The notes: generated by a model not told the origin, from the sequence alone. A DNA stretch of 24,260 bases from a phage (GCA_018175035.1 GCA_018175035.1_4099.4), one strand, 5' to 3'; shown: positions 2,404 through 22,131, counted from the stretch's first letter. Made by a program: numbers and translations.

Positions 2404-3108
2404 TTATAAGCCATGTCTTTTCAAAAATCTAGCAAACACATTTTTGGAAGCACCATAACTTTCATATATACTAACTTTTTTCTCACCATTATTCAAACGT
2501 TGTTTGATATCTTCTATGTTATCTTCTAAACGTTTTACGTTTGCAAATTTCTTAGATGGTATATTATTTTTGGTTCTATAATTCAGTACTGAACCTGAAC
2601 TAATATTCATTATTTTAGCAATTTCAGTATCTAATAAACCTTGGTTAATATATTCTTTTACCTTTTCATAATCAACAGATGTTTCACCACCCTTTGTATT
2701 AGAAGGAGGCTTGACCATTTTTTGTGAACACTCAACACTACAATATTTTGTATATGATTTCACTTTAGTATGCCTACGGGTAAATTCCATATTACAACAA
2801 GCACATACAAATGAATCATATCGTGCTTGCACACCATTCTTATGTGTTTTATAACGATGTTCATCAACATGAAGTATTTGCAAATTTGACAAATCATCAT
2901 TTGTGAAATCATTATCAATGTGGTCTGCTTCTTCAGACTCAGTTAAATATCTACCTTCTTGTACTGCTAATAGATATCTGGCATATTGAGTACTGCTTCT
3001 ATCAGTTGGAGAATTATAAAGTATTACAGTTCTTCTACCTTCAGGGTTTATCTGTATATACCCATTCTCCCAATCATTACTGTATGGATATTCTAATTTT
3101 ATTTTCAT
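2404..3108 (-). CDS. HNH endonuclease with C-terminal helix-turn-helix-like region, free-standing, directly downstream of the intron-containing tRNA
   Basis: Protein contains EADHIDNDFTNDDLSNLQILHVDEHRYKTH (HNH motif), CxxC pairs, and a C-terminal LLDTEIAKIMNISSGSVLNYR segment; ATG start; 234 aa. Confidence 0.8.
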   Translation of the reverse strand: MKIKLEYPYSNDWENGYIQINPEGRRTVILYNSPTDRSSTQYARYLLAVQEGRYLTESEEADHIDNDFTNDDLSNLQILHVDEHRYKTHKNGVQARYDSFVCACCNMEFTRRHTKVKSYTKYCSVECSQKMVKPPSNTKGGETSVDYEKVKEYINQGLLDTEIAKIMNISSGSVLNYRTKNNIPSKKFANVKRLEDNIEDIKQRLNNGEKKVSIYESYGASKNVFARFLKRHGL

Positions 3109-3127: not shown

Positions 3128-3432
3128 TGAGCCATCTGTGAGTCGAACACAGTACCTAACGATTCGTATAATCTATAGTTTTCACTATAGTACGGACTAT
3201 ATCATCATCCCATAGGGATGCCGGACGCTAATGATGTATTACACAGTAAGATCGTACTGTACCATCTAGTCTCTGCACCTTCCCAATACGCTTATTGGGC
3301 TTGGCTCAGGATTGTCATCACCATTACGTGTTAAGATTTCCCTGAATTCATCCAGTTTTTCAATCACCATTACTGATGAAAGTCACCATTGTCGATGAGT
3401 CGTTTGCTCTAACCACCGTGAGCTAATGGCCC
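3128..3432 (-). tRNA. Intron-containing tRNA, anticodon CAT (Ile2-like, or elongator Met); exons 3395..3432 and 3128..3164; CCA not encoded
   Basis: 5' exon GGGCCAT-TA-GCTC-ACGGTGGTTA-GAGC-A-AACGA-CTCAT; 3' exon AA-TCGTT-AGGTA-CTGTG-TTCGACT-CACAG-ATGGCTC-A. The exons fold into a canonical 75-nt cloverleaf only after removing 230 nt from the anticodon loop. C4-G69 and C5-G68 match what I recall of the E. coli tRNA-Ile2 acceptor stem. Confidence 0.8.
3165..3394 (-). ncRNA. Group I self-splicing intron (230 nt, no ORF) in the tRNA anticodon loop
   Basis: 5' exon ends in U; intron ends in G; GUG near the intron 5' end can pair with the exon CAU (P1); core elements P-like AATTCAGGGAAA, Q-like AATCCTGAGCC, R-like CAGAGACTAGA, S-like GATATAGTCCG, with P7 pairing GACUA/UAGUC. 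Confidence 0.8.
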
Positions 3433-3439
3433 GATTTAG

Positions 3440-3676
<237 letters not shown>

Positions 3677-3682
3677 AAATTA

Positions 3683-3701
3683 ATTATATCAGTACTGAAA
3701 A

Positions 3702-3711
<10 letters not shown>
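3683..3711 (-). promoter_or_regulatory. sigma70-like promoter TGGACA-N17-TATAAT with TTCAGTACTGA in the spacer
   Basis: Minus strand: TGGACA ATAGTTTTCAGTACTGA TATAAT; the predicted start site falls at about the tRNA-Ser(GCT) 5' end (3676). Confidence 0.55.
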
Positions 3712-4554: not shown

Positions 4555-4964
<410 letters not shown>

Positions 4965-4968
4965 CTTT

Positions 4969-5137
<169 letters not shown>

Positions 5138-5141
<4 letters not shown>

Positions 5142-5298
5142 ATTCGTACCAGTAGTTCAATTAAGTACATTTCATATGCTGGATCGTTGATAAGTTTATC
5201 ATACATATGTGGCTCTGAAATGAATTCCCAATGATACTTTAGCCATCTACCGATACCCGAATATCTAAAATTAATGTCATTCATCCATTCTTCATGTG

Positions 5299-5302
<4 letters not shown>
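5138..5302 (-). CDS. small protein, MTHEEW family (member B, 54 aa)
   Basis: Manual translation: MTHEEWMNDINFRYSGIGRWLKYHWEFISEPHMYDKLINDPAYEMYLIELLVRI; ATGA overlap with member A; about 80% identical to A. Confidence 0.65.
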
Positions 5303-5463
<161 letters not shown>

Positions 5464-10046: not shown

Positions 10047-10343
10047 TTAATTATTAGAAAGAACAATTTTTGAAACTGGTAAATCTGTATTATTTACACG
10101 TTGTTCATTATATCCATTCTGTACAAGAATGTCAATAACTTTAGACTTATCAATTGTAAATGATTCTAACATATCATATCGGTAATAACCAATAGTCTGA
10201 CTGAACTCATATTTTCCTGGCTGTTGACGACAACACGTATTTGTTTCAGCCATAATCTTATTGATTAGGTAATATGTTTCAGTACTATCAATATTTGGAA
10301 TATAGATCTTATCATCAAAATGAATTACTTCATGTTTATTCAT
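10047..10343 (-). CDS. hypothetical protein (start moved from GTG to the first ATG)
   Basis: Track ORF 10047..10406 starts at GTG and overlaps the upstream gene by 70 nt; the first ATG is at 10343. Confidence 0.55.
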   Translation of the reverse strand: MNKHEVIHFDDKIYIPNIDSTETYYLINKIMAETNTCCRQQPGKYEFSQTIGYYRYDMLESFTIDKSKVIDILVQNGYNEQRVNNTDLPVSKIVLSNN

Positions 10344-10605: not shown

Positions 10606-10895
10606 TAAATTGTTCCTTTCATGAAGTCTGGAATAACGATTACGATAGGAGGATTATACTCTACATAACCATTTTTTGTCAATAGACTTTTAATATCTGA
10701 AATCACATTATCATGCTGTTCAATATCTTTATCACAAAAGATTTCCAATTCTTTCTGAAACGGTTTTTTAACCGAGATGTTTTGAGTCAGTGTTTGGATT
10801 CTCTGTAACATATCAATTGGATCTGGACTGAACTCATTACCAACATAAAGAGTACCAGATGCATCTTTTTCTAGCAAGACTTCTAAAATTTTCAT
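10605..10895 (-). CDS. hypothetical protein
   Basis: Track ORF, ATG start, ATGA overlap with the upstream gene. Confidence 0.7.
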   Translation of the reverse strand: MKILEVLLEKDASGTLYVGNEFSPDPIDMLQRIQTLTQNISVKKPFQKELEIFCDKDIEQHDNVISDIKSLLTKNGYVEYNPPIVIVIPDFMKGTI

Positions 10896-11722
10896 TTCTT
10901 ATCCTTCAATTTACTAAAGTTTTCTCGTGTAAATCCAGGAACTGGAAAATATACATCACAGTCAACATCAGGATTAATAATTATCATGTCATTACATATT
11001 ATATCACGAATTTTACTACCGTCCACGATTTTTTGCATTAAATCATTCCATTTTTTACGAGAAACAACGAATGTACTAATTATACATAAATCATGTCCAC
11101 GTTTTGAAATATATCCTAATACTTCATTATCGTAAACAACACGTATGGTAACTTTTCCAATTGTTACCCCTCTTACTGGATTAATACTAGTATCTTCAAA
11201 AATTAATTCTAATTTAAGTTTACCATTTGAAATAAGTGATGAAGTATATTTAGAAACCATTTTATCAATTTCTTGAGTCAAATCATCTCTACCTAGATAT
11301 TCAAATACAGAATAAGTTAATTCGTCTGCACCTAACTGTTGGATAGTTGGAAGCTGGGCAACCATATCTAAAGATACAGGTTCGATATATATTCTTTCAA
11401 TATCAGACGATTGTATAAATAGACAACCATCAGGTGTCGTATCTCTAACAATTTCGGCATAATATGTATAAAGATAAAAAACATTAGACTCTGATGAGTC
11501 AGTTTCTACCCAAATCTCAGATTGTTTCATTTCATCTTTATGAAGAATTCGTTGAGTAAATCCTATGTAAAAACCAAGATATAAATCATCATCAGTTTCA
11601 AACGGATTAAACATCAAATACGGATATTTGTCAAGGTACTCATTGAACTTACGCTGCACATCTCTATCACAATCCATGATATACTTTCGGAATTCAGAAA
11701 TGATTATTTTTTCTAATGACAT
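10892..11722 (-). CDS. hypothetical protein (start moved from TTG to ATG)
   Basis: Track ORF starts at TTG at 11728; the ATG at 11722 is preceded by GAGGA plus 6 nt. Confidence 0.7.
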   Translation of the reverse strand: MSLEKIIISEFRKYIMDCDRDVQRKFNEYLDKYPYLMFNPFETDDDLYLGFYIGFTQRILHKDEMKQSEIWVETDSSESNVFYLYTYYAEIVRDTTPDGCLFIQSSDIERIYIEPVSLDMVAQLPTIQQLGADELTYSVFEYLGRDDLTQEIDKMVSKYTSSLISNGKLKLELIFEDTSINPVRGVTIGKVTIRVVYDNEVLGYISKRGHDLCIISTFVVSRKKWNDLMQKIVDGSKIRDIICNDMIIINPDVDCDVYFPVPGFTRENFSKLKDKK

Positions 11723-11724
11723 AA

Positions 11725-11922
11725 TCAATCCTCAAGATGCATGTAGTACATAAACATCGCCAACCATATAAAAAAGCCGAAACAACGAAGTAAAATATCA
11801 ATTGTTGGATCTGTCCCACCATTAACTTGGTAAACGATTACTGGGATTAAAGCAATAGTAAGAGACACAGCACATAAGATGAATGCAACAAACACCTCAA
11901 ACATAAACTTAATCGTTTCCAT
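11725..11922 (-). CDS. small hydrophobic (likely membrane) protein
   Basis: Track ORF, ATG start, SD GAAGGA; two hydrophobic segments. Confidence 0.65.
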   Translation of the reverse strand: METIKFMFEVFVAFILCAVSLTIALIPVIVYQVNGGTDPTIDILLRCFGFFIWLAMFMYYMHLED

Positions 11923-12481
11923 TATTATCCTTCAGTGTGTAGTGTAGTACATCTAAAAAGTTATACATTGATTCATTACGCATAACCTTGATTGTTAAAT
12001 TACGACAACCCAACATACGTTTGAGGCGACGCTTCACCGCAGTTAAATCATGTGTACTATTCGTATACAGACCATTAACCTGACCTGGAACAGTTGGCAC
12101 ATGAAGAATGTAATCATAATTCATTAGTAAGCGTTGATTATATTTCTTTAATGCTTGCTTGTATTCTGAAATATTTTCAAAGAATGTACAATAACGGTCG
12201 TAACGATTCATTTTATTCAAAATTGAAATACGAAAAGCGTTACCACTATTCCAATCATCTTCAGTTGGGTTTGGGTTGATATGTGCCATGTTAGCTGTAC
12301 TGTACCCACCACTTGTGAAAACTTCAGAATATCCATTCTCAAAAACATACAATGTTGCTTTGTGGCCTCTGAATTCTTTACGGTACTTTGACAGTACTTG
12401 GATGTGATTACGCTTGGACTTGTACATTTCGTAACCTTCATAATCTGAACTGAATTCACAAATTTTATCAACACCAGCCAT
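11909..12481 (-). CDS. hypothetical protein
   Basis: Track ORF, ATG start, SD GAGGA plus 8 nt. Confidence 0.7.
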   Translation of the reverse strand: MAGVDKICEFSSDYEGYEMYKSKRNHIQVLSKYRKEFRGHKATLYVFENGYSEVFTSGGYSTANMAHINPNPTEDDWNSGNAFRISILNKMNRYDRYCTFFENISEYKQALKKYNQRLLMNYDYILHVPTVPGQVNGLYTNSTHDLTAVKRRLKRMLGCRNLTIKVMRNESMYNFLDVLHYTLKDNNGND

Positions 12482-12513
12482 TTCGTATATCCTCGTTTAA
12501 TTAATATAGGAGT

Positions 12514-12542
12514 ATTATACATACTCCATTTTCATGTGTCAA
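12514..12542 (-). promoter_or_regulatory. consensus sigma70 promoter TTGACA-N17-TATAAT; the -10 lies in a 7-bp stem (GGAGTAT/ATACTCC)
   Basis: Minus strand: TTGACA CATGAAAATGGAGTATG TATAAT ACTCC; the TGA inside TTGACA is the stop codon of the small ORF 12539..12682. Confidence 0.6.
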
Positions 12543-12682
12543 GCTTTATAATACGGAAGACTTTTTACTAAAGATTCAGACGTATTATTTTTTACCCATG
12601 TACTACCGTTGTCATTAGATACGTATCCAGTACCATTAATAAATTTACGCATAATACCAGTAAAAATATTAGTATACACCAT
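12539..12682 (-). CDS. small hypothetical protein (47 aa), not in the track
   Basis: Manual translation: MVYTNIFTGIMRKFINGTGYVSNDNGSTWVKNNTSESLVKSLPYYKA; TAATG overlap with the upstream gene; AGGA 9 nt upstream. Confidence 0.4.
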   Translation of the reverse strand: MVYTNIFTGIMRKFINGTGYVSNDNGSTWVKNNTSESLVKSLPYYKA

Positions 12683-12852
12683 TACTCAGTATCCTTTGGT
12701 TTAGAATGTAAACCATACTTTTCATCATAACGATCATAGGTAGTACCATTAGTACTAGCTTTGATGCTTTCAGTACGATTGATTGGTTCAATCTTAACAC
12801 CACGATAACCAATCTCTTCTTTAAATTGTTCCCATGATTCACGTAAACTCAT
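12682..12852 (-). CDS. hypothetical protein (start moved from GTG to ATG)
   Basis: Track ORF starts at GTG at 12879; the ATG at 12852 (MSLRESW...) is preceded by AAAGGGG plus 5 nt. Confidence 0.55.
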   Translation of the reverse strand: MSLRESWEQFKEEIGYRGVKIEPINRTESIKASTNGTTYDRYDEKYGLHSKPKDTE

Positions 12853-12866
12853 TTTAGCCCCTTTTG

Positions 12867-13010
12867 TTATTTCATACACTCACGTAGGTCAATCTTTTCT
12901 ACTGACCCACCGAGCACTAGATAGTGAAAATTAGAATCTTTGTTTGCCATATTCAAAAGATCTGCTTTCTGTTGAAGCGTAAAGCGTGAAGTACTGTTAC
13001 GTACTGGCAT
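12867..13010 (-). CDS. small hypothetical protein (47 aa), not in the track
   Basis: Manual translation: MPVRNSTSRFTLQQKADLLNMANKDSNFHYLVLGGSVEKIDLRECMK; SD AGGAG plus 5 nt. Confidence 0.5.
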   Translation of the reverse strand: MPVRNSTSRFTLQQKADLLNMANKDSNFHYLVLGGSVEKIDLRECMK

Positions 13011-13012
13011 AG

Positions 13013-13456
13013 TTACTCCTTAAAGTAGATATCACGAATTTGTTTAATCATCTCTAACTCTTGAAGTCCTATCATACCGAAGTTTTCTTGCACTGTCAAC
13101 TGTTGGAAGTACATTTCCTCTAAATTATTATAAGGAATATCCACTAATGATAAAGGAACACTTTCACCACGGTATAGCAGATCTTCAACGAAAAGTTTTA
13201 AAATCATGATAGAAAATGAATCTTTTTGGATATGAAATTTGTAAAATGTTTGGTTAGTACTGAACATTGTATTTGATGGATTGAAACCCATTTCAACAAA
13301 TACTGTATCTTTATCATTATGTGTGACATATGTACATCTTGAATTCGCAAGAACTTTAGATTTTGGGAAATAAAAATCACCCATCAACTTCTGTCGTTTC
13401 CAATCCTCGTATACAACTGGATGCTTAACCTTCTTCAATTGGTGCAGTACTGTCAT
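13013..13456 (-). CDS. hypothetical protein, FQxST-motif family
   Basis: Track ORF, ATG start; LEEMYFQQLTVQEN. Confidence 0.7.
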   Translation of the reverse strand: MTVLHQLKKVKHPVVYEDWKRQKLMGDFYFPKSKVLANSRCTYVTHNDKDTVFVEMGFNPSNTMFSTNQTFYKFHIQKDSFSIMILKLFVEDLLYRGESVPLSLVDIPYNNLEEMYFQQLTVQENFGMIGLQELEMIKQIRDIYFKE

Positions 13457-13836
13457 AGTTTTTTCCAGTCCAATGAATCGAAATCGATTTGCTCAGGATT
13501 ATCAACAGCGACAACTCGTGCATTATGAAGAGTTTCAAAGTAGCCGTTCCACGGTGTTCGTAATGGAACTGTCACATCGCCAACTTTAACCAAGAATGAA
13601 TATTCTGGTGATATTGGGTCAAACCACTCTTTTTGTTTAGCATTTTCAACGATAGTTTCGTGTTCTTTAGTATAGCAATTATCTTGCTTCATATAAAACA
13701 CCCAATGCTCTTTTAGGCACTGTAAAGCAGCAACTGCTTCCTCTTTAGAAGACCATTGAATATCAATTGTATTAAGAACGTCATAACAATTTTCAGTGTC
13801 CCCTGTAGTGTAATGTACTTCAATGCTGTATTTCAT
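13453..13836 (-). CDS. hypothetical protein
   Basis: Track ORF, ATG start, ATGA coupling. Confidence 0.7.
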   Translation of the reverse strand: MKYSIEVHYTTGDTENCYDVLNTIDIQWSSKEEAVAALQCLKEHWVFYMKQDNCYTKEHETIVENAKQKEWFDPISPEYSFLVKVGDVTVPLRTPWNGYFETLHNARVVAVDNPEQIDFDSLDWKKL

Positions 13837-14291
13837 TAATCATCGCCTTTTAGTAATTTACAAATTTCAATCATATGATAATAACATGTATTCCAAAATT
13901 GTCCATTAGTACTTCCAACATCATGCACAGTACTTTGTTGGAAAACATATTCATCGTTGAACATCATTTTAATATCATCAATGTAAAATTCTGGTTTTGA
14001 ATCATTATTGTATTCAATACTCGTTTCACCATCTGGATCAAGTGAAATTGATGATATGTCGTGAATTCCTCTCGGATTTGTTGGATAAATTCTCAACGTA
14101 AGAGGATAGAAGTCTGGATCGGTTTCATAAGTATATTCGATTATGTAATAACCATCACCAGTAATTGATTGATATTTAAATGTAGTTTCAATTGAATTTG
14201 AGATGTTAAATCCCAGTTTCTTTATCTCATGTAGATGTGATAATATTTTATGTAAAGATCCTAAAACATGAATCAAATTATCAATTTTCAT
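13836..14291 (-). CDS. hypothetical protein, FQxST-motif family
   Basis: Track ORF, ATG start; NDEYVFQQSTVHDV. Confidence 0.7.
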   Translation of the reverse strand: MKIDNLIHVLGSLHKILSHLHEIKKLGFNISNSIETTFKYQSITGDGYYIIEYTYETDPDFYPLTLRIYPTNPRGIHDISSISLDPDGETSIEYNNDSKPEFYIDDIKMMFNDEYVFQQSTVHDVGSTNGQFWNTCYYHMIEICKLLKGDD

Positions 14292-14803
14292 TTACGATCC
14301 TTTGAAAAGTTCAGTTTAAAAGTTTTACCAAATTCCATTGTAGCTTTACCCAGATTGTTAATATTTTCTTTCAACATTTCTTGCATCTTCCTAATACTTT
14401 CAATCCAGGCTTCTTCTTCGATACGAAGAATTGGTCGCAATCGTTCCTGAATATCGTTAAAACGTGTATTGAGTTCAACCAATGATTCATATGTGAAATC
14501 TTTCATATCGATAATAGTACTTCTTTGAAAGAATTCTTCTTCAGACAAATTACTTAAAATGATTTTATCACGACCAATAGATAATGTCAATTCATCATCT
14601 TTATTTTTTTTAATTACAATACTGATAGGTGTTTTTAATGTAATGCAAATATCATGATTATTAAATGTTTCAGTTTGGTTTGACATTCTGAATTGAAGTT
14701 TCCCAGATAAAGCATGTACTGGTGATGGTTGCTTTTTACCAGTAATAACATCTTCCCATGAATCGAGAATATTATTAATAATTTTAACATAAGGAATTGG
14801 CAT
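14288..14803 (-). CDS. hypothetical protein, FQxST-motif family (start moved from TTG to ATG)
   Basis: Track ORF starts at TTG at 14830; the ATG at 14803 is preceded by AGGTG plus 5 nt; SEEEFFQRSTIIDM. Confidence 0.7.
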   Translation of the reverse strand: MPIPYVKIINNILDSWEDVITGKKQPSPVHALSGKLQFRMSNQTETFNNHDICITLKTPISIVIKKNKDDELTLSIGRDKIILSNLSEEEFFQRSTIIDMKDFTYESLVELNTRFNDIQERLRPILRIEEEAWIESIRKMQEMLKENINNLGKATMEFGKTFKLNFSKDRK

Positions 14804-14816
14804 ATATGCACCTATG

Positions 14817-14839
14817 AAAAATCCACGCAATGCGTGGAT
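14817..14839 (-). terminator. rho-independent terminator-like hairpin (GC-rich 8-bp stem plus U4)
   Basis: Minus strand: AUCCACGCA-U-UGCGUGGAU then UUUU; between the stop of 14846..15376 and the SD of 14288..14803. Confidence 0.5.
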
Positions 14840-14845
14840 TTGTAA

Positions 14846-15376
14846 TTATTCAAGTATAGTAATTTCAATTAAACGAATTTCGATAAACTCGTTTTCAGTT
14901 TCCCATGACGTGCCAAATTTCTTTTCAAGTTCAGATTTCACATCACTTTTAAATTTTCCCATAGTATTAGGAATAATTTGTTTGGTTAATTTGTCATAAC
15001 CACAATAAAACATAGGTTTCTCCCTTCGAGATATTAGCTGAACAAAATCTTTTGGATATGCAGGTATGTTATGCATCACTTCATGAATACACTCAGTACT
15101 TGAATCTTGTACTTTGTACATTACATTAAGTTTACCTCTGAAATTTGCGGTCATATCAACAATAGTTCCTTTACCCGATTTAAGTAAAGTTCCATTCTTT
15201 GAATGAGAGCAATAAAATACCTCATCACCAATATTAGGATAATACAAATTAAATTCTAATTCAGATTTTACAGCCAGCCGTTTGAAACTTTCTGTACGTT
15301 TTATATAAGTTTGGTGTTTGTTTATGTTCAAAAGAATATATCTCGTAGTAAGTGTGATATAACTGGCATAGTCCAT
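14846..15376 (-). CDS. hypothetical protein (start overlaps the methyltransferase 3' end by 49 nt)
   Basis: Track ORF with ATG start; no alternative internal ATG nearby. Confidence 0.55.
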   Translation of the reverse strand: MDYASYITLTTRYILLNINKHQTYIKRTESFKRLAVKSELEFNLYYPNIGDEVFYCSHSKNGTLLKSGKGTIVDMTANFRGKLNVMYKVQDSSTECIHEVMHNIPAYPKDFVQLISRREKPMFYCGYDKLTKQIIPNTMGKFKSDVKSELEKKFGTSWETENEFIEIRLIEITILE

Positions 15377-17217
15377 CCATTCCCAAGCATTTTGTATGCT
15401 TGTGTTGAACTACTAACTTTGAAGTAGTTTACATCAATTCCTTGCAACATGCAACACTCTTGTACTGTTAAATGACGATAGTCCACATTTCGCTTACCAT
15501 GTTCAATAAGGAAATCCCTATCGATATCAGGTTCTTTGAAAACAATTTGTCTTCTTGATTTATTAAAGTACTGGTTACAATCACCACCCTTAAAATAGTT
15601 AGCATCTATACAGTACGAAGCGGTTCTGTCAGTGTACCAACCATCTTCAATAATATCTTGAAGTTTAGGTGCATTTGATAATGCAGGTGGTATAAAAAGT
15701 TTATCAGTACTGTACCAGTAATATCTCTGCCTGAAGTGAGGCGTATAATGCTGGGAATTTATCAGTACTGGTGTCATCTCAAGAACACTATTAATGTATT
15801 GCTTGAAATCTTCTTTCATCTTAACATTCTCAAAGAGAACTTTCAAGTTAGGATTTAAACTTTTTATGTGTTGGTAGATATCAACCATCGTGTGAAACAA
15901 CATTCCACGTGGGTCATTTATACCACCCTGTTTACCAGCAACTGACCATGCTTGACAATTGTGAACAACTATATTATTTGCAGTGTACGTGTTATCAACA
16001 GCAACTTCAAAATTATATACAGTTTTCCATTCTCCAGTATGAGTGCTAGTTTTTACACCTTTAACCCACGAATAATTTTTGTCATAAAAAGCTTCCTCTT
16101 TTTTCGGTTGGTCTTTTTTATATGACAAAACATAATAAGGTTTTTGGTTAACAACTCGATTTTCAATAACTTTGGTATTCTCTGGTTGAGTATAGCTTAT
16201 ATTGGAATGCCTTCCATATACGTTCATTATCAATTGTTGAATACCCAATACACAGTTTATTGATGTTGTAGTGAATTTATAACATCCACTATCAATATGT
16301 CCATCAGCGTCAAAGTAACCATCAAGAAATGCTTTTTGGTTTTTTATGCATTCCGTGAATAGTTCTGGGTGTACTTGTTTGTTAGAAGCACCCTTTCCCA
16401 TTTGTTCACAAAATTCAACCAGATCTTTTGAACATATATAAAATTTATATGAAGTTCTTTCTTTAACATAATTATATTTCATATTCATACCATCAAAACA
16501 TGAAACTAATTCATTAAATTCGTCATGTGCACAACAGATGAAAACTCTATATTGGTAACTATTGGTTCTATTGTTACGTTTTACTTTATATGTCCATCCA
16601 TCACCCATAAAGCGACCCATAAAATACCAGAATTTTTCATCTTTCGTTGATTTGTTAGATTCAACTGATTTAACATTACACAGAAAATGGTCATATGTCA
16701 AATCATGTGCCTCTACCCATTCTGGTTCAGAAAAATGACGTTCATATTGTCTAATGTTGTTATTCCACATAGACGTCATTTTTCTTGAATAAAAGGGATG
16801 ATTATCGGTACATTCAATTGGAAGGTGACCTTGACCTGTAATAATACGAGTGGGAGCATTTTTAACACCAGTACTCAAAACTGGATGATATTTACCAGTA
16901 TGTGTCAGTACCATGTCACCAACTTGAATGTCTTTTATATCTTTATGACCTTTGTCTGTCATAATCATGGTTCCTGCTGGGAAGCATGGAAATCCACCCA
17001 TTAATAAATCTATTTTATCCCACTCAATATCCCATTCTCTCCATTTAGTTACATCACCCAATTGGGTGATATCAGGAAAGTTAGCTTGAGATTCAGCTAT
17101 TGCGTACTTGTCAATTTCGGATGAATAATATTTTTCAACAGGGATACCAGCATCTTTTAATGCCATGTATCCAACACTCATCCCATTAAAAAGAGATAGT
17201 ACTCGGATAGGTTTCAT
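15328..17217 (-). CDS. DNA (cytosine-5)-methyltransferase precursor interrupted by an intein
   Basis: Motif I LSLFNGMSVG; GGFP (res 74-77) then, after 343 aa, CQAWSVAGKQGG, which rejoins to the PCQ motif; motif VI LFENV; C-terminal LTVQECCMLQG and LGNGWTMPVISHL. ATG start, SD AAAGGA. Predicted spliced extein about 286 aa. Confidence 0.85.
   Translation of the reverse strand: MKPIRVLSLFNGMSVGYMALKDAGIPVEKYYSSEIDKYAIAESQANFPDITQLGDVTKWREWDIEWDKIDLLMGGFPCFPAGTMIMTDKGHKDIKDIQVGDMVLTHTGKYHPVLSTGVKNAPTRIITGQGHLPIECTDNHPFYSRKMTSMWNNNIRQYERHFSEPEWVEAHDLTYDHFLCNVKSVESNKSTKDEKFWYFMGRFMGDGWTYKVKRNNRTNSYQYRVFICCAHDEFNELVSCFDGMNMKYNYVKERTSYKFYICSKDLVEFCEQMGKGASNKQVHPELFTECIKNQKAFLDGYFDADGHIDSGCYKFTTTSINCVLGIQQLIMNVYGRHSNISYTQPENTKVIENRVVNQKPYYVLSYKKDQPKKEEAFYDKNYSWVKGVKTSTHTGEWKTVYNFEVAVDNTYTANNIVVHNCQAWSVAGKQGGINDPRGMLFHTMVDIYQHIKSLNPNLKVLFENVKMKEDFKQYINSVLEMTPVLINSQHYTPHFRQRYYWYSTDKLFIPPALSNAPKLQDIIEDGWYTDRTASYCIDANYFKGGDCNQYFNKSRRQIVFKEPDIDRDFLIEHGKRNVDYRHLTVQECCMLQGIDVNYFKVSSSTQAYKMLGNGWTMPVISHLLRDIFF
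15958..16986 (-). mobile_element. Intein (343 aa) with LAGLIDADG homing-endonuclease motifs, inserted before the catalytic Cys of the PCQ motif
   Basis: N-terminal block CFPAGTMIMTDKG...; C-terminal ...NNIVVHN followed by +1 Cys; internal FMGRFMGDGW and KAFLDGYFDADGHI. Codon boundaries checked against the nucleotide sequence (TGC at 16986-16984, AAT at 15960-15958, TGT +1 at 15957-15955). Confidence 0.8.
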
Positions 17218-17245
17218 ATAAAATCCTTTTTATATTGTTAAGGTA

Positions 17246-17263
17246 CTATAATATATTATAGCA
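17246..17263 (-). promoter_or_regulatory. Extended -10 promoter element (TGC-TATAAT) inside a 16-bp perfect palindrome CTATAATATATTATAG, upstream of the methyltransferase
   Basis: Palindrome read directly at 17246-17261; minus strand reads TGCTATAAT; the -35 is weak; about 30 nt upstream of the methyltransferase ATG. Confidence 0.45.
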
Positions 17264-17269
17264 TCTTAT

Positions 17270-17521
17270 TTAGAAATCTTCCAAACTTTTTTCATCACAC
17301 CATCGTGATGTACAGATGATTGCAGATGCCAGAATTGAAGCACTTGCACGTCCTCCACCAAGTAAGTACTGGCTAATTACACCAATCATATTGAACACTT
17401 TATCATACTCGGTTAGTTGTTCAAAACCTTTCTTCCAATGCTGATATTCTTCTTCTGTGACATTAAACTCACCATCAAGTTCCTTTAAAATCTTTTTAAG
17501 CACAGCACTATGTTCACTCAT
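17270..17521 (-). CDS. hypothetical protein (start uncertain; the track start at 17560 is GTG)
   Basis: Several in-frame ATGs; the ATG at 17521 (MSEHSAVLKK...) is preceded by GGAG plus 6 nt; an acidic 25-codon upstream ORF (17514..17591, MSEKPKEPLDRDDDFYDERYGDDDE) with a strong SD overlaps it. Confidence 0.5.
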   Translation of the reverse strand: MSEHSAVLKKILKELDGEFNVTEEEYQHWKKGFEQLTEYDKVFNMIGVISQYLLGGGRASASILASAIICTSRWCDEKSLEDF

Positions 17522-17599
17522 CATCATCTCCATATCGTTCGTCATAAAAATCATCATCACGATCTAATGGTTCTTTTGGCTTTTCAGACATATATTTCC

Positions 17600-17860
17600 T
17601 CACATGGTAAAGGTATTATCACCATCCATATCTTCATCAGTTGCTTCAGCTAATGTCTTGATTGTAAGTAATCCACGCTTCACGTACAACATGAAGACCT
17701 TTTCATAATTACCAAACATAATCTCAGGTGACATGTAATTCTCTGTTACAATGACGATTGGACGGCCCTGTGAAAGCATACGAAACATAGTACGATATTT
17801 GTCAAATGTACGAAATTCATCCATGTTCATCATGTGGCGTTTACGAACTACTTTAGTCAT
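17600..17860 (-). CDS. hypothetical protein
   Basis: Track ORF, ATG start, SD AAAGGTAA. Confidence 0.7.
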   Translation of the reverse strand: MTKVVRKRHMMNMDEFRTFDKYRTMFRMLSQGRPIVIVTENYMSPEIMFGNYEKVFMLYVKRGLLTIKTLAEATDEDMDGDNTFTM

Positions 17861-17874
17861 CTTATTACCTTTAG

Positions 17875-18315
17875 TTAATTGAACTCTACTTCTGGATAAT
17901 GATTATAGAACATCTCACGAACTGCGTCAAGATGTTCTTGAAATTGTTTTATATCTTCTAATGATGGTGCATCAATAACAGTACTAAGTTGAAACAACGA
18001 TTCTTCTGTGTTATATAGTGACATATCAAATGAGTTATTGTTGTCATCAGTTATGATATTATCACAAATTTCGTAAGTGTCAATACAAACATCATCAAGT
18101 GTTGTATTATCATATACAGTGTATACGAATACAAAAATAAAAGAAGAATGTTCTTTACCATAACGCGGTGGGTCATATGTCACATAGCATTTGTGGTCAA
18201 ATGTATCGAGTTCCATAGACACCACCCCAGCTTCACGATATTCATTAGTTTCACTGGTAAGATCCGGTATTGATGTTATCGAAAGTAAGTGGAGAAATTT
18301 ACTTGGATTTAGCAT
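17875..18315 (-). CDS. hypothetical protein, FQxST-motif family
   Basis: Track ORF, ATG start; TEESLFQLSTVIDA. Confidence 0.7.
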   Translation of the reverse strand: MLNPSKFLHLLSITSIPDLTSETNEYREAGVVSMELDTFDHKCYVTYDPPRYGKEHSSFIFVFVYTVYDNTTLDDVCIDTYEICDNIITDDNNNSFDMSLYNTEESLFQLSTVIDAPSLEDIKQFQEHLDAVREMFYNHYPEVEFN

Positions 18316-18764
18316 TTCACCACCATTGGATTTTGCGACTGTATATTAAAAAGGGATAATACAAAAGTACTCAATTTTTCGAAACAATCTACTAATACAT
18401 TTAACTCATCATAACTAACACCAATTTCACGAATAAGCGATTGTTGAAAGAATCCTTCTTCGGTTAACGTTAAACTACTAACCTCAGTTATGTTATAATA
18501 ACTGTGGGATGTTGTGGTTGATATTAGTTGTATTGCAATCGTATCTGATGTTGTGTTGTACAGATATAAATATTTTGTTTTTCTTTCCAATGGATCTATA
18601 CATGAAAGATCGATCATGTCATAGGTTTTTCCAATAAAAATATTACAATCATCTGACAATTCACAACAAATGCGTATATGTTCTTTCGGGTCATGAACAC
18701 GTTGTGTGTCAAATTCACATGACATTGCAATTTCAAAATGATTTTTTATTTCGTCAACATTCAT
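18309..18764 (-). CDS. hypothetical protein, FQxST-motif family (start moved from GTG to ATG)
   Basis: Track ORF starts at GTG at 18770; ATG at 18764 with GGTGGGTG upstream; TEEGFFQQSLIREI. Confidence 0.7.
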   Translation of the reverse strand: MNVDEIKNHFEIAMSCEFDTQRVHDPKEHIRICCELSDDCNIFIGKTYDMIDLSCIDPLERKTKYLYLYNTTSDTIAIQLISTTTSHSYYNITEVSSLTLTEEGFFQQSLIREIGVSYDELNVLVDCFEKLSTFVLSLFNIQSQNPMVVKC

Positions 18765-19138
18765 CTGCACCCACCATTAATTCTTATATTTGTATAGTTT
18801 AATGCTTTTTTAATAATACCAATTTCTGTAATTCCTATTACATTTTTCTCAATCAATGACAATTGGAATAGTTCCTCTTCGGAAATATCAATACTGTGGA
18901 TTCTTGTACAATAATCGTTGAAGTCATATACATATCGTATTGTATAGTCGTTTATAGAAACTGATACAATTGCAATCCCATCATGGATGTAAGTTAGTTC
19001 ATTTGAGTATCTATTAAAAATTAACCTATCTGGTGAACCTATTGGTAGTTGAAATGTATTTCTAGTATCTTGAACAATAACAAAATCATCATCTATATTT
19101 CTACTCAGAACACCCAAAATATCATATATAGTAGTCAT
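18761..19138 (-). CDS. hypothetical protein, FQxST-motif family
   Basis: Track ORF, ATG start; SEEELFQLSLIEKN. Confidence 0.7.
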   Translation of the reverse strand: MTTIYDILGVLSRNIDDDFVIVQDTRNTFQLPIGSPDRLIFNRYSNELTYIHDGIAIVSVSINDYTIRYVYDFNDYCTRIHSIDISEEELFQLSLIEKNVIGITEIGIIKKALNYTNIRINGGCR

Positions 19139-19139
19139 G

Positions 19140-19544
19140 TTATTCTTTACCTTCAGCAGTTCTGATAATTTTCATAACTTCTCTGGATAGTGCGTATATT
19201 TTTTTATAGTACTCAAATGTAACTGAACCAAAATCATTAATAGTACTAGCCATGAAGAACGATTCTTCTGTATATAGTTCATTTGACAAAGCAACCAGTT
19301 CTTGGTGAAATTTTGCGTCCTTCCAATAACGAAATTCAAAAACAAATTGTCCGTCATGACCGACTCTACAACATTCAGAACGATCACTGTCTACACAGCT
19401 AAACACAATATCCCTTTCAGAGTCGTACCAGATATTTCCAATATTTGTTTCAATAACAGCATAATCAATTTTTTTAGAATTTGGAATTAAACCTTTTTTC
19501 ACCAGCACTAAACTGGTATTATCAATATCTAGTAAACTTACCAT
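19140..19544 (-). CDS. hypothetical protein, FQxST-motif family
   Basis: Track ORF, ATG start, SD GGGGAA; TEESFFMASTINDF. Confidence 0.7.
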   Translation of the reverse strand: MVSLLDIDNTSLVLVKKGLIPNSKKIDYAVIETNIGNIWYDSERDIVFSCVDSDRSECCRVGHDGQFVFEFRYWKDAKFHQELVALSNELYTEESFFMASTINDFGSVTFEYYKKIYALSREVMKIIRTAEGKE

Positions 19545-19545
19545 A

Positions 19546-19956
19546 TCAATTCCCCATTACTAAAGTGTTTTTAATCTCCAACAATTCACTATACATATTC
19601 TTCAATTGTAATATATCTTCAAAAGTAATACCACCAAGATCATCAACTAATGAACGTTGGAATAAAGATTCACTTGTTTGTAATGTATCTAAATCGGTGA
19701 TTTTTAATAAAGAACTTGGATTAAGTGTTTCGACTAGTAGTATGTTTTTGTATGGTACATATGTGATCTTGATGTTCTTTTTATAATTAATCTTATAAAA
19801 TCGCATAATTGACGATTCATCACTTAGTTGGATAATTGGGTCGTCTTGATCATTAGACCACCATACAGTACTAGTCATATGATTGACGTGGTGGTTCAAT
19901 TCTGATATGTCCAAATCTAAAAAATATTTTAGTTCATTGTGTAAATCTAAACTCAT
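19546..19956 (-). CDS. hypothetical protein, FQxST-motif family
   Basis: Track ORF, ATG start, SD GAGGA plus 7 nt; SESLFQRSLVDDL. Confidence 0.7.
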   Translation of the reverse strand: MSLDLHNELKYFLDLDISELNHHVNHMTSTVWWSNDQDDPIIQLSDESSIMRFYKINYKKNIKITYVPYKNILLVETLNPSSLLKITDLDTLQTSESLFQRSLVDDLGGITFEDILQLKNMYSELLEIKNTLVMGN

Positions 19957-19986
19957 AAATTTATCCTCAATGCAGCATCATCATGT

Positions 19987-20015
19987 ATTGTAGGATAAAC
20001 CCACAATAATGTCAA
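19987..20015 (-). promoter_or_regulatory. sigma70-like promoter TTGACA-N17-TACAAT
   Basis: Minus strand: TTGACA TTATTGTGGGTTTATCC TACAAT; the TGA within TTGACA is the stop codon of gene 20012..20407; upstream of gene 19546..19956. Confidence 0.55.
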
Positions 20016-20407
20016 GATGTAAAATAATTATACCAGTAATATAGTTCTTTTAATTCTTCAGTACTGAACAATACTTCTTCTATTGTAGATTGTTGAAAGT
20101 GATATTCATCATTTAGATACATAGAAATATTACTATATACTTTCCTATTGTATTGACATAAAAAAGAAGTTTTTTGATTAATGTATTCCGTAAATGTTAA
20201 TTTATCTAACTCAATATCGAATGATAATTTAATAATATGACTATTATCATTTACATACATTAGTTTCTTTGAAAAATGATCAATTGTAATATATTCTTTA
20301 TGAGAGAACTGAAATATATTATTAAATTTATTACCATTTGTGCTTCTAAATTTTTCAAGGTAATAAGAAAGTGGTTTAATTATTGAAGTTCCAATATTGT
20401 TCTTCAT
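20012..20407 (-). CDS. hypothetical protein, FQxST-motif family
   Basis: Track ORF, ATG start, SD GAGGA; NDEYHFQQSTIEEV. Confidence 0.7.
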   Translation of the reverse strand: MKNNIGTSIIKPLSYYLEKFRSTNGNKFNNIFQFSHKEYITIDHFSKKLMYVNDNSHIIKLSFDIELDKLTFTEYINQKTSFLCQYNRKVYSNISMYLNDEYHFQQSTIEEVLFSTEELKELYYWYNYFTS

Positions 20408-20424
20408 ATATCCTCAATTTTAGA

Positions 20425-20451
20425 TAAGAAAAATGCCCCGATCTTCGGGGC
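20425..20451 (-). terminator. rho-independent terminator (GC-rich 6-bp stem GCCCCG/CGGGGC, U-rich tail)
   Basis: Minus strand: GCCCCGAAGAUCGGGGC then AUUUUUCU; between gene 20568..21119 and gene 20012..20407. Confidence 0.65.
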
Positions 20452-20567
20452 AGTACTAAAATGATTTTGTACCAAAAGGGGAATAAGAACAAAATGAAAA
20501 TATAATAACGCATCATTATTATGTAAGGGAGGAAAGTAACATGATATGTTAACCATTTCTGGTATAT

Positions 20568-21119
20568 TTATTTATCATTTAATTCTTTAAGTTGGGTTTG
20601 TATATCTTTAGTTATATTTCGAATTTTCTTAAAGCAATAAACACTATCGTCCAATTCGATTTTAAGTTCATGTGTAAATGCATACAGAAGTTCAGCAAAT
20701 ACTAAATCTTGACGCATCCAGTTTCCATCTTTATATAAAGTCATTACACAATATGGGCATTCACTATTAGAAGTTTGCTTTCCAATAAAAACACTTTGAA
20801 TTGATTCATGCTTAAAGCCAATAAAACTTTCATTTATTTTTTTAATTTCAGTACTGATATCGAATTTAGCACTGGTGTTGATTGCAAAAATTTTATTTCC
20901 ACTTTCATCAGTATTGATGTTGAGTTCAATATCACTACCTAGTTTACGTACTGCTAGAGTATAAAGAAGTAATTCATACATGTCGTAACTTGTTACATTA
21001 CCATTTGGTGCAATTACATCAACACTAACACCGTGCATTTTTACTTCTGTATTAAATCCATCTTTATCAGAAAGAAAATCAGTGATTTGCTTTGTAAGGA
21101 TTTTAATTTGGTCTATCAT
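20568..21119 (-). CDS. hypothetical protein
   Basis: Track ORF, ATG start, SD AAGGAAA. Confidence 0.7.
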   Translation of the reverse strand: MIDQIKILTKQITDFLSDKDGFNTEVKMHGVSVDVIAPNGNVTSYDMYELLLYTLAVRKLGSDIELNINTDESGNKIFAINTSAKFDISTEIKKINESFIGFKHESIQSVFIGKQTSNSECPYCVMTLYKDGNWMRQDLVFAELLYAFTHELKIELDDSVYCFKKIRNITKDIQTQLKELNDK

Positions 21120-21799: not shown

Positions 21800-22131
21800 A
21801 AAACCTTCACATCAGTACGTTTTTCTCTTTGTTCTTTTTTAACCTCATCAGTTCTAGTATCTTCTAATTGTAACACAACTTCTTTTAGAATGTCAACATC
21901 AATTGTTGCTTCTACATATTGATAGTCGTTTACACCAAAAACATACTTTACTGCAACCCATACACGGTTATACCATTTTAAAAAAGGATTTAAACGCATA
22001 CTTATCAGACATTGACCAAGTTTATCATCTCCATATTCCTCTGTCAAGTCAAATTGTGCAATGTGAACGCAATGCTCCATTTTATCGCCACAAGAACAAC
22101 GTAAAATATACTCTTTACTATCTTCACTCAT
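21796..22131 (-). CDS. hypothetical protein
   Basis: Track ORF, ATG start, ATGA coupling on both sides. Confidence 0.65.
   Translation of the reverse strand: MSEDSKEYILRCSCGDKMEHCVHIAQFDLTEEYGDDKLGQCLISMRLNPFLKWYNRVWVAVKYVFGVNDYQYVEATIDVDILKEVVLQLEDTRTDEVKKEQREKRTDVKVL

Follow-up and report, generated by a model that had tools for sequence, protein, structure and literature searches.

Does the presence of a stop codon inside the promoter of the following gene, seen twice in a single stretch of phage DNA, reflect a special design? The stretch, referred to here as the window, comprises 24,260 nucleotides (nt) of one strand (GCA_018175035.1, sequence 4099.4). The initial annotation had pointed to two minus-strand gene junctions in it, at 12537-12542 (junction A) and 20010-20015 (junction B), where a TTGACA hexamer contains the TGA stop of the preceding open reading frame (ORF) and is followed 17 nt later by a -10 hexamer. 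These coordinates and sequences proved to be exact. We consider it reasonably probable (roughly 0.7) that both sites are early promoters of the host sigma-70 type in a tightly packed gene array, that the overlap with the stop codon is a by-product of this packing, and that junction A resembles the promoter/stem-loop units (PeSLs) of other phages. The elements of the two junctions, with protein lengths in amino acids (aa), are as follows.

12542-12537, minus strand: -35 hexamer TTGACA of junction A, containing the TGA stop (12541-12539) of the upstream 47-aa gene
12519-12514, minus strand: -10 hexamer TATAAT of junction A, 17 nt past the -35
near A12507, minus strand: predicted transcription start of junction A
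12527-12509, minus strand: hairpin A, GGAGTAT-GTATA-ATACTCC, enclosing the -10 of junction A
12539..12682, minus strand: 47-aa gene (ending LPYYKA-stop), with its stop inside the -35 of junction A; matches phrog_2381
11909..12494, minus strand: GAGGA ribosome site (12494-12490) and 190-aa gene (ATG at 12481), downstream of the junction A promoter
20015-20010, minus strand: -35 hexamer TTGACA of junction B, containing the TGA stop (20014-20012) of the upstream 131-aa gene
19992-19987, minus strand: -10 hexamer TACAAT of junction B, 17 nt past the -35
near 19980, minus strand: predicted transcription start of junction B
19986..20008, minus strand: possible 9-bp stem of junction B, TATTGTGGG/CCTACAATA, covering its spacer and -10
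20012..20407, minus strand: 131-aa gene (ending FTS-stop), between a terminator and the junction B promoter; matches phrog_33313
20434..20452, minus strand: hairpin TGCCCCGAAGATCGGGGCA followed by TTTTT, resembling an intrinsic terminator, upstream of the 131-aa gene; carries a terminator annotation in G17 and UE-S1
19546..19968, minus strand: GAGGA ribosome site (19968-19964) and 136-aa gene (ATG at 19956), downstream of the junction B promoter

The genes downstream of both promoters match families of unknown function (phrog_21435 for the 190-aa gene and phrog_24941 for the 136-aa gene). In the arrangement that we favor, early genes form a long array read in one direction, and each promoter would serve the small gene that follows it. 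Tight packing would make promoters coincide with the 3′ end of the ORF before them or lie within it, and an ORF reaching the -35 in the TGA frame would have to end there.

Near-consensus promoter sequences are strongly over-represented in the window. The pattern TTGACA-N16-18-TANAAT occurs seven times where 0.37 occurrences are expected (about 19-fold), always on the minus strand, which also carries all plausible genes. All 12 sites with at least 11 of 12 consensus matches likewise lie on the coding strand. Weak promoter-like matches (at least 9 of 12) are not enriched, numbering 116 compared with 120 in shuffled sequences, and thus the enrichment is specific to near-consensus sites. Genome-wide counts were made in a 352-kb relative, ECO103 4-12-1 (OR844650), that is 96-98% identical to the window. 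This genome has 108 near-consensus sites, compared with 19-29 in Markov simulations (about 4-fold), and these are distributed 97:11 in favor of the main coding strand, on which 514 of 612 crude gene calls are located. A mild excess of A, relative to a background of 66% AT, is present 15-20 nt upstream of the -35 among 26 promoters.

The two junctions have the anatomy expected for sigma-70 promoters. Their hexamers, separated by N17 spacers, match the consensus at 12 of 12 positions (A) and 11 of 12 positions (B), a combination that is of the E. coli (host) consensus type at both junctions and exact at A. The spacing falls within 17 ± 1 bp, orientation and position are appropriate, and the hexamers are better conserved than the spacer. 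In both cases the ATG lies 30-32 nt past the -10, with GAGGA 7-8 nt before the ATG. From these features we infer that both sites are very probably early promoters of the sigma-70 type, active from start points near those predicted.

Sequence matches identify the window as early genes of an Asteriusvirus jumbo coliphage similar to 121Q, PBECO4 and G17, with 96-98% identity to Asteriusvirus phages of E. coli. For positions 11000-21000, matches at 95-98% identity were obtained in 33 complete phage genomes, every one an Asteriusvirus jumbo coliphage or a Salmonella-hosted relative (for example 121Q, PBECO4, vB_EcoM_G17 and phAPEC6). The syntenic region of G17 is an unbroken, one-strand array of short hypothetical genes and tRNAs with a few predicted terminators. 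Relatives were drawn from the GenBank phage collection; scans of IMG/VR with the proteins encoded downstream of both junctions matched phage 121Q only. When compared with the more distant phage JNE01, neighboring genes of the window range from 27% to 94% protein identity, a spread that indicates strong mosaicism.

Comparison of the junction sequences, which the initial annotation had proposed, reveals that relatives keep the stop within TTGACA and that the promoter hexamers outlast their surroundings. At junction A the -35 is invariant in G17, 121Q, ph0011, EC.P1, UE-S1, TH47, JNE01, A4, Munch and 7t3, and the -10 is TATAAT or GATAAT in every lineage that has the promoter. The -35, the -10 and the arms of hairpin A are retained in JNE01 (about 75% identity), A4 and the Salmonella phages Munch and 7t3, while the rest of the spacer diverges. 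Klebsiella phages of the RaK2 type and Erwinia phage Hallingskeid encode a homologue of the 190-aa protein and lack the promoter, with the genes abutting directly. At junction B, an unchanged -35 is shared by ph0011, EC.P1, UE-S1, TH47 and JNE01, the spacer drifts, and the -10 takes the forms TACAAT, TACACT, TAAAAT or TATAAT. Both -35 hexamers are unchanged at overall identities of 75-80%.

The promoter at junction B is independent of the ORF that ends in it. JNE01 lacks the 131-aa gene, and in this phage TTGACA-N17-TATAAT comes immediately after a GC-rich terminator hairpin; the promoter therefore belongs with the downstream gene. In the window, no promoter is found between the terminator hairpin and the ATG of the 131-aa gene. 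In two instances, a small number, a gene next to a promoter is missing: JNE01 is without the 131-aa gene, and from A4 the 47-aa gene has been removed precisely. Separately, 2 of 28 compared window genes are without a homologue at the syntenic JNE01 locus, namely the 131-aa gene (region 20012-20452) and a 171-aa gene (region 14288-14841). Both are on the minus strand, and each follows immediately after a terminator hairpin, at 20452-20434 and 14841-14819, respectively.

The 47-aa ORF upstream of junction A is one of three tiny ORFs (47, 56 and 47 aa) that occupy three different frames between 12539 and 13010 on the minus strand, each matching one PHROG family. We considered whether they might be fragments of a frameshifted pseudogene and rejected this idea: the ORFs stay separate in JNE01 at about 75% nucleotide identity and 72-88% protein identity, and each has its own PHROG. 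For the same reasons we regard the 47-aa ORF as a real small gene. It is annotated as a coding sequence of its own in G17, ph0011, EC.P1, UE-S1 and JNE01. The middle gene of the three (phrog_6110/5441) includes a 70-nt stretch (roughly 12699-12768 in the window) that is 81% identical in many T5-like Salmonella and Escherichia phages, which suggests that this gene travels between unrelated phages.

We then asked how often a stop codon should fall within a promoter if the overlap has no significance of its own. Of the three frames in which TTGACA can be read, one contains TGA, such that an ORF entering in that frame must stop whereas ORFs in the other two read on. Nine strong sites in the window are reached by an upstream ORF, with three read as TTG ACA, four as xTT GAC A and two with TGA in frame, compared with three TGA-in-frame sites expected from a binomial model (nine trials, p = 1/3). 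For ECO103, we tallied from our site table those coding-strand sites lying no more than 150 nt from an upstream stop and having a start codon no more than 130 nt past the -10. The stop is inside the -35 in 7 of these 21 junction promoters (33%), and the ORF reads through in the other 14. Because the frame shares match one third, the overlap is a by-product of dense packing and should occur at roughly one in three of the promoters that overlap an ORF. The proposal that these junctions represent extreme compaction of an exceptional kind fails, given that about half of the strong promoters in the region overlap an upstream ORF. Recurrence with the same geometry, also singled out in the initial annotation, is to be expected under the null model. 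No new principle follows from the overlap, since TGA in TTGACA automatically ends ORFs in that frame. In ECO103, 11 predicted genes end in T-TGA-CA, whereas about 3.4 would be expected from context. This excess arises because promoters sit at gene junctions; 7 of the 11 are on the main coding strand and are followed at 17 ± 1 nt by a -10 with 5-6 of 6 matches.

An alternative is that the stop within the -35 has itself been selected, either because a promoter cassette supplies a portable stop for ORFs that are shuffled in, or because pressure for minimal length favors the sharing of three bases. The observation most favorable to this idea comes from the orthologous junction A promoter, in whose -35 TGA three unrelated upstream genes end.

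47-aa gene, ending LPYYKA-stop: window and JNE01
56-aa gene, ending EEVKKED-stop: A4
82-aa gene, ending VIDTEH-stop: Munch and 7t3

Relatives with 81-85% identity preserve the arrangement at a third site as well (ECO103 position 276844), and the genes upstream of junctions A and B are present in some phages and absent from others. Nonetheless, three contexts at a single promoter form a small sample that was looked at post hoc, and they are only suggestive. The frame counts fit the neutral value of one third both in the window and genome-wide, many promoters have a stop a few nucleotides upstream of the -35 or an ORF that reads through, and identity breakpoints between relatives do not coincide with promoters. 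Selection on the stop is thus unlikely in our estimation.

Similarity among promoters bears on this idea and on a bolder version of it. When the ECO103 promoters were compared with one another, 48 pairs proved alike in the spacer (at least 70%) and 34 pairs in the first 30 nt after the -10 (at least 60%), whereas only three pairs were alike upstream of the -35; cassette homology thus starts at the -35. About 30 promoters link into one similarity-connected family; its core members have in common (aagta)TTGACA-...(C)AGTACTG-TATAAT-AGTTTACATCAA, with AGTTTACATCAA in a conserved start region, and a GGGGAGAA/TTCTCCCC hairpin, and in them the palindrome CAGTACTG abuts TATAAT. Members of this family are found at 302-322 kb in ECO103, and the CAGTACTG-TATAAT part is seen in the window at 4936-4963 and 3683-3711 (minus strand), the latter site (3711) lying just upstream of a tRNA gene. 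One could imagine that the early-promoter cassette serves as a universal right-hand gene boundary, with homology beginning at the -35 and TGA acting as a portable stop. Such a cassette would let unrelated small genes swap in upstream and still terminate cleanly, and would account for the shared end point of three unrelated genes in one orthologous TTGACA. The frame counts lend this possibility no support, and we regard it as a long shot.

The second feature of junction A is the inverted repeat around its -10. The initial annotation had placed the -10 in a 7-bp hairpin at 12514-12530; the hairpin is genuine in the sense that it is conserved, but the range was approximate, and the repeat actually extends from 12527 to 12509. 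As RNA it has a minimum free energy of -9.4 kcal/mol (z of -2.9), and its counterparts in JNE01, A4 and Munch reach -10.2, -12.8 and -13.3 kcal/mol, respectively. In an alignment of six distinct sequences, 85% of cells are paired, and two pairs change on both sides, one from G-C to A-U and the other with U-A alongside G-C. These compensatory changes span four lineages, in which the loops are 5, 6 or 7 nt long. JNE01 has lost the inner pair of the stem and gained an outer pair.

Because transcription is predicted to start at about 12507, past the stem, hairpin A would exist only in RNA read through from upstream. A likely source of such transcripts is the following promoter-like site, whose products would run through the three tiny genes to the hairpin.

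13071..13099, minus strand: TTGACA-N17-TATGAT, inside the last 87 nt of a 147-aa gene

In these read-through RNAs, hairpin A might attenuate transcription or stabilize the transcripts, and the junction A promoter would then re-initiate transcription just past it. The hairpin is not a canonical terminator, since only three of its pairs are G-C and no U-tract follows; the A4 version has a UCUUUU tail.

A different interpretation of the repeat is that it functions as DNA, as a palindromic operator at which a phage or host regulator occludes the -10, rather than as a nucleic-acid stem-loop. Overlap with the -10 is a classic position for a repressor, and the arms are conserved across genera. A dimeric protein would be expected to require fixed spacing, whereas the distance between arms varies with the loop and the register of the arms moves outward in JNE01 and A4. 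Moreover, one pair switches from G-C to A-T on both sides, and other promoters are without a similar palindrome. Variable loops, shifting register and paired changes fit base-pairing better, and so an operator seems improbable.

Structure was also evaluated at junction B and throughout ECO103. The 61-nt region of junction B folds with -15.1 kcal/mol (z of -2.4), and 81% of alignment cells are paired in relatives; on comparative grounds, the junction B stem is weakly supported. Fold z-scores below -2 were obtained for 21% of ECO103 promoters (30% of the plausible ones), 20% of other gene ends and 5% of random windows. These scores replaced a cruder count of perfect hairpins of at least 6 bp (promoters 40%, random windows 32%, other gene ends 37.5%), which gave no separation.

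Several observations weigh against the interpretation of these sites as active promoters with cassette-like stem-loops. For hairpin A, covariation was scored on six distinct sequences, and a score as high was reached in 46 of 500 shuffles; the junction B stem shows no more covariation than shuffles do. Stable structure is no commoner at promoters than at other gene ends, both exceeding random windows. Hairpin A is AT-rich, with three G-C pairs among seven and the tail UAUAUUAAUU, and in a terminator scan it appears weakly terminator-like. Junction A pairs with only one other promoter (ECO103 276844) and junction B with none, such that neither belongs to the large cassette family. The identity breakpoints between relatives do not fall exactly at promoters, where recombination between cassettes would be expected to place them; in UE-S1, identity starts to fall some 90-135 nt into the downstream gene. 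Finally, a search of the literature did not recover start-site or reporter data for the Asteriusvirus group.

Two remaining alternatives concern the nature of the promoters themselves. The sites might be recognized mainly by a phage-encoded factor of the sigma-70 family and belong to a later temporal class, and a phage sigma factor with regions 2-4 has indeed been reported in the early region of phage CBB (PMC5259590). This seems quite improbable in view of the exact E. coli consensus of the hexamers and 17-nt spacing, and of the location of the sites in an array of small genes of unknown function, a setting that the authors of the CBB study read as early (PMC5259590). Least credible, and very improbable, is the notion that the matches are chance look-alikes in AT-rich DNA: weak matches are indeed no commoner than in shuffles, but near-perfect ones are enriched and strand-biased both in the window (12:0) and genome-wide, their hexamers persist while spacers drift, and they lie at suitable distances from a ribosome site and ATG.

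Host sigma-70-type promoters in a packed array thus remain the preferred explanation, and further promoter-like sites in the window lie within the 3′ ends of genes.

21867..21896, minus strand: TTGACA-N18-TACAAT, within the 3′ end of a 111-aa gene, frame xTT GAC A
17902..17930, minus strand: TTGACG-N17-TATAAT, inside the last 56 nt of a 146-aa gene
10653..10682, minus strand: perfect TTGACA-N18-TATAAT, within the 3′ end of a 96-aa gene
10107..10135, minus strand: perfect TTGACA-N17-TATAAT, within the 3′ end of the ORF at 10047..10343

Together with junctions A and B, these sites offer a concrete early-promoter map for an unstudied group of 350-kb coliphages that is considered for phage therapy; our literature search found no list of such promoters for Asteriusvirus genomes.

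The palindrome CAGTACTG (8 bp) is abundant well beyond the promoter cassettes. The window has 17 copies (positions 355, 1252, 1373, 2212, 2584, 3690, 4463, 4533, 4942, 7131, 7210, 13445, 15705, 15763, 20059, 20849 and 22874), where 0.2 are expected. In the 352-kb relative it is by far the most over-represented 8-bp palindrome, with 204 copies compared with 3.4 expected from composition (about 59-fold), of which 171 are fully within predicted genes. At 15 places in that genome (12 minus, 3 plus) it lies 0-2 nt 5′ of a TAnAAT -10. The palindrome is also present in small loci from RaK2, Munch and Hallingskeid. A literature search for it returned only primers. Its role may be that of a binding site, or it may be one of the highly iterated palindromes.

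Other elements of the window include an intein, a group I intron and a gene array. The intein is a 1029-nt in-frame insertion (15955-16983) in a C5 cytosine DNA methyltransferase gene (ORF 15328..17217, minus strand). It encodes a LAGLIDADG homing endonuclease, with Hint_2, LAGLIDADG_3 and Intein_splicing matches at residues ~77-420, and is present in ph0011, UE-S1 and JNE01 and absent from ECO103, G17 and EC.P1. A full-length group I intron (Rfam, 99 bits, E = 7e-25) occupies 3173-3487 on the minus strand inside a tRNA cluster, between tRNA-Ser (3587-3676) and tRNA-Asn (2322-2395). The 234-aa ORF downstream of it (2404..3108) has no Pfam match. We sought the host gene of the intron using the G17 tRNA-Met that lies between tRNA-Ser and tRNA-Asn of that phage, and this sequence has no match in the window. 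Three 54-aa ORFs of 165 nt each (4977..5141, 5138..5302 and 5299..5463, minus strand), which overlap by 4 nt, form a tandem array of paralogues, because adjacent copies cross-match at about 83% nucleotide identity.

How do these junctions compare with known systems? Intrinsic terminators share with hairpin A a position directly after a stop codon and a following U/A-rich stretch, and in our scan hairpin A is borderline, whereas true terminators in its vicinity, such as 20452-20434, are rich in GC and end in T5 tails. Among large phages, RpoD-like early promoters have been predicted in a region of short genes in the RaK2-like phage CBB (PMC5259590), and the related phage PA5oct requires the RNA polymerase of its host and has TTGAC/TATAATA motifs where RNA-seq maps start sites (PMC7318152). 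The reports on CBB/GAP32 and PA5oct thus describe host-type consensus promoters in regions of short hypothetical genes and reliance on host RNA polymerase, as proposed here, but they do not describe overlap with upstream stops or associated stem-loops.

The closest parallel is provided by PeSLs, whose definition and hairpin positions we take from Arbiol et al. 2010 (PMC2839356) and Comeau et al. 2014 (PMC4122927), and which our literature search found described, apparently, only from T4-like phages (RB49/phi1, PST/T4 and nt-1/KVP40). These elements are repeated in hyperplastic regions, with some 100 bp conserved among many copies, and have been implicated in the shuffling of genes of unknown function (PMC2839356; PMC4122927). 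They are further characterized by stem-loops that terminate or attenuate transcription and by mini-circles arising when cassettes recombine, properties addressed by reporter assays and inverse PCR (PMC2839356). They differ from the present junctions in having Gn-loop-Cn stems, whereas the hairpins here are AT-rich and of 7-9 bp, and in that the upstream stop is drawn in an AT-rich region before the -35 rather than inside it. The phage considered here is an Asteriusvirus, a RaK2-like jumbo phage, and not T4-like. In addition, junctions A and B lie outside the large repeated family, the AT-rich element upstream of the -35 is weak, and breakpoints do not coincide with promoters. In common with PeSLs, both junctions place a near-perfect TTGACA-N17-TATAAT between an upstream stop and the ribosome site and ATG of the next gene, and both lie among arrayed small genes that lack a known function. 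Variation of the neighboring genes between close relatives, seen in small numbers, and the many paralogous promoter copies in the genome may be further likenesses. Stem-loops of PeSLs are mostly between the boxes or overlap the -10, and junction A combines its promoter with a 7-bp stem that encloses the -10, while junction B combines its own with a stem of weak comparative support. The junction A unit therefore resembles a PeSL cassette in its anatomy, and this likeness suggests that the promoter/stem-loop architecture of T4-like phages might extend to RaK2-like jumbo phages.

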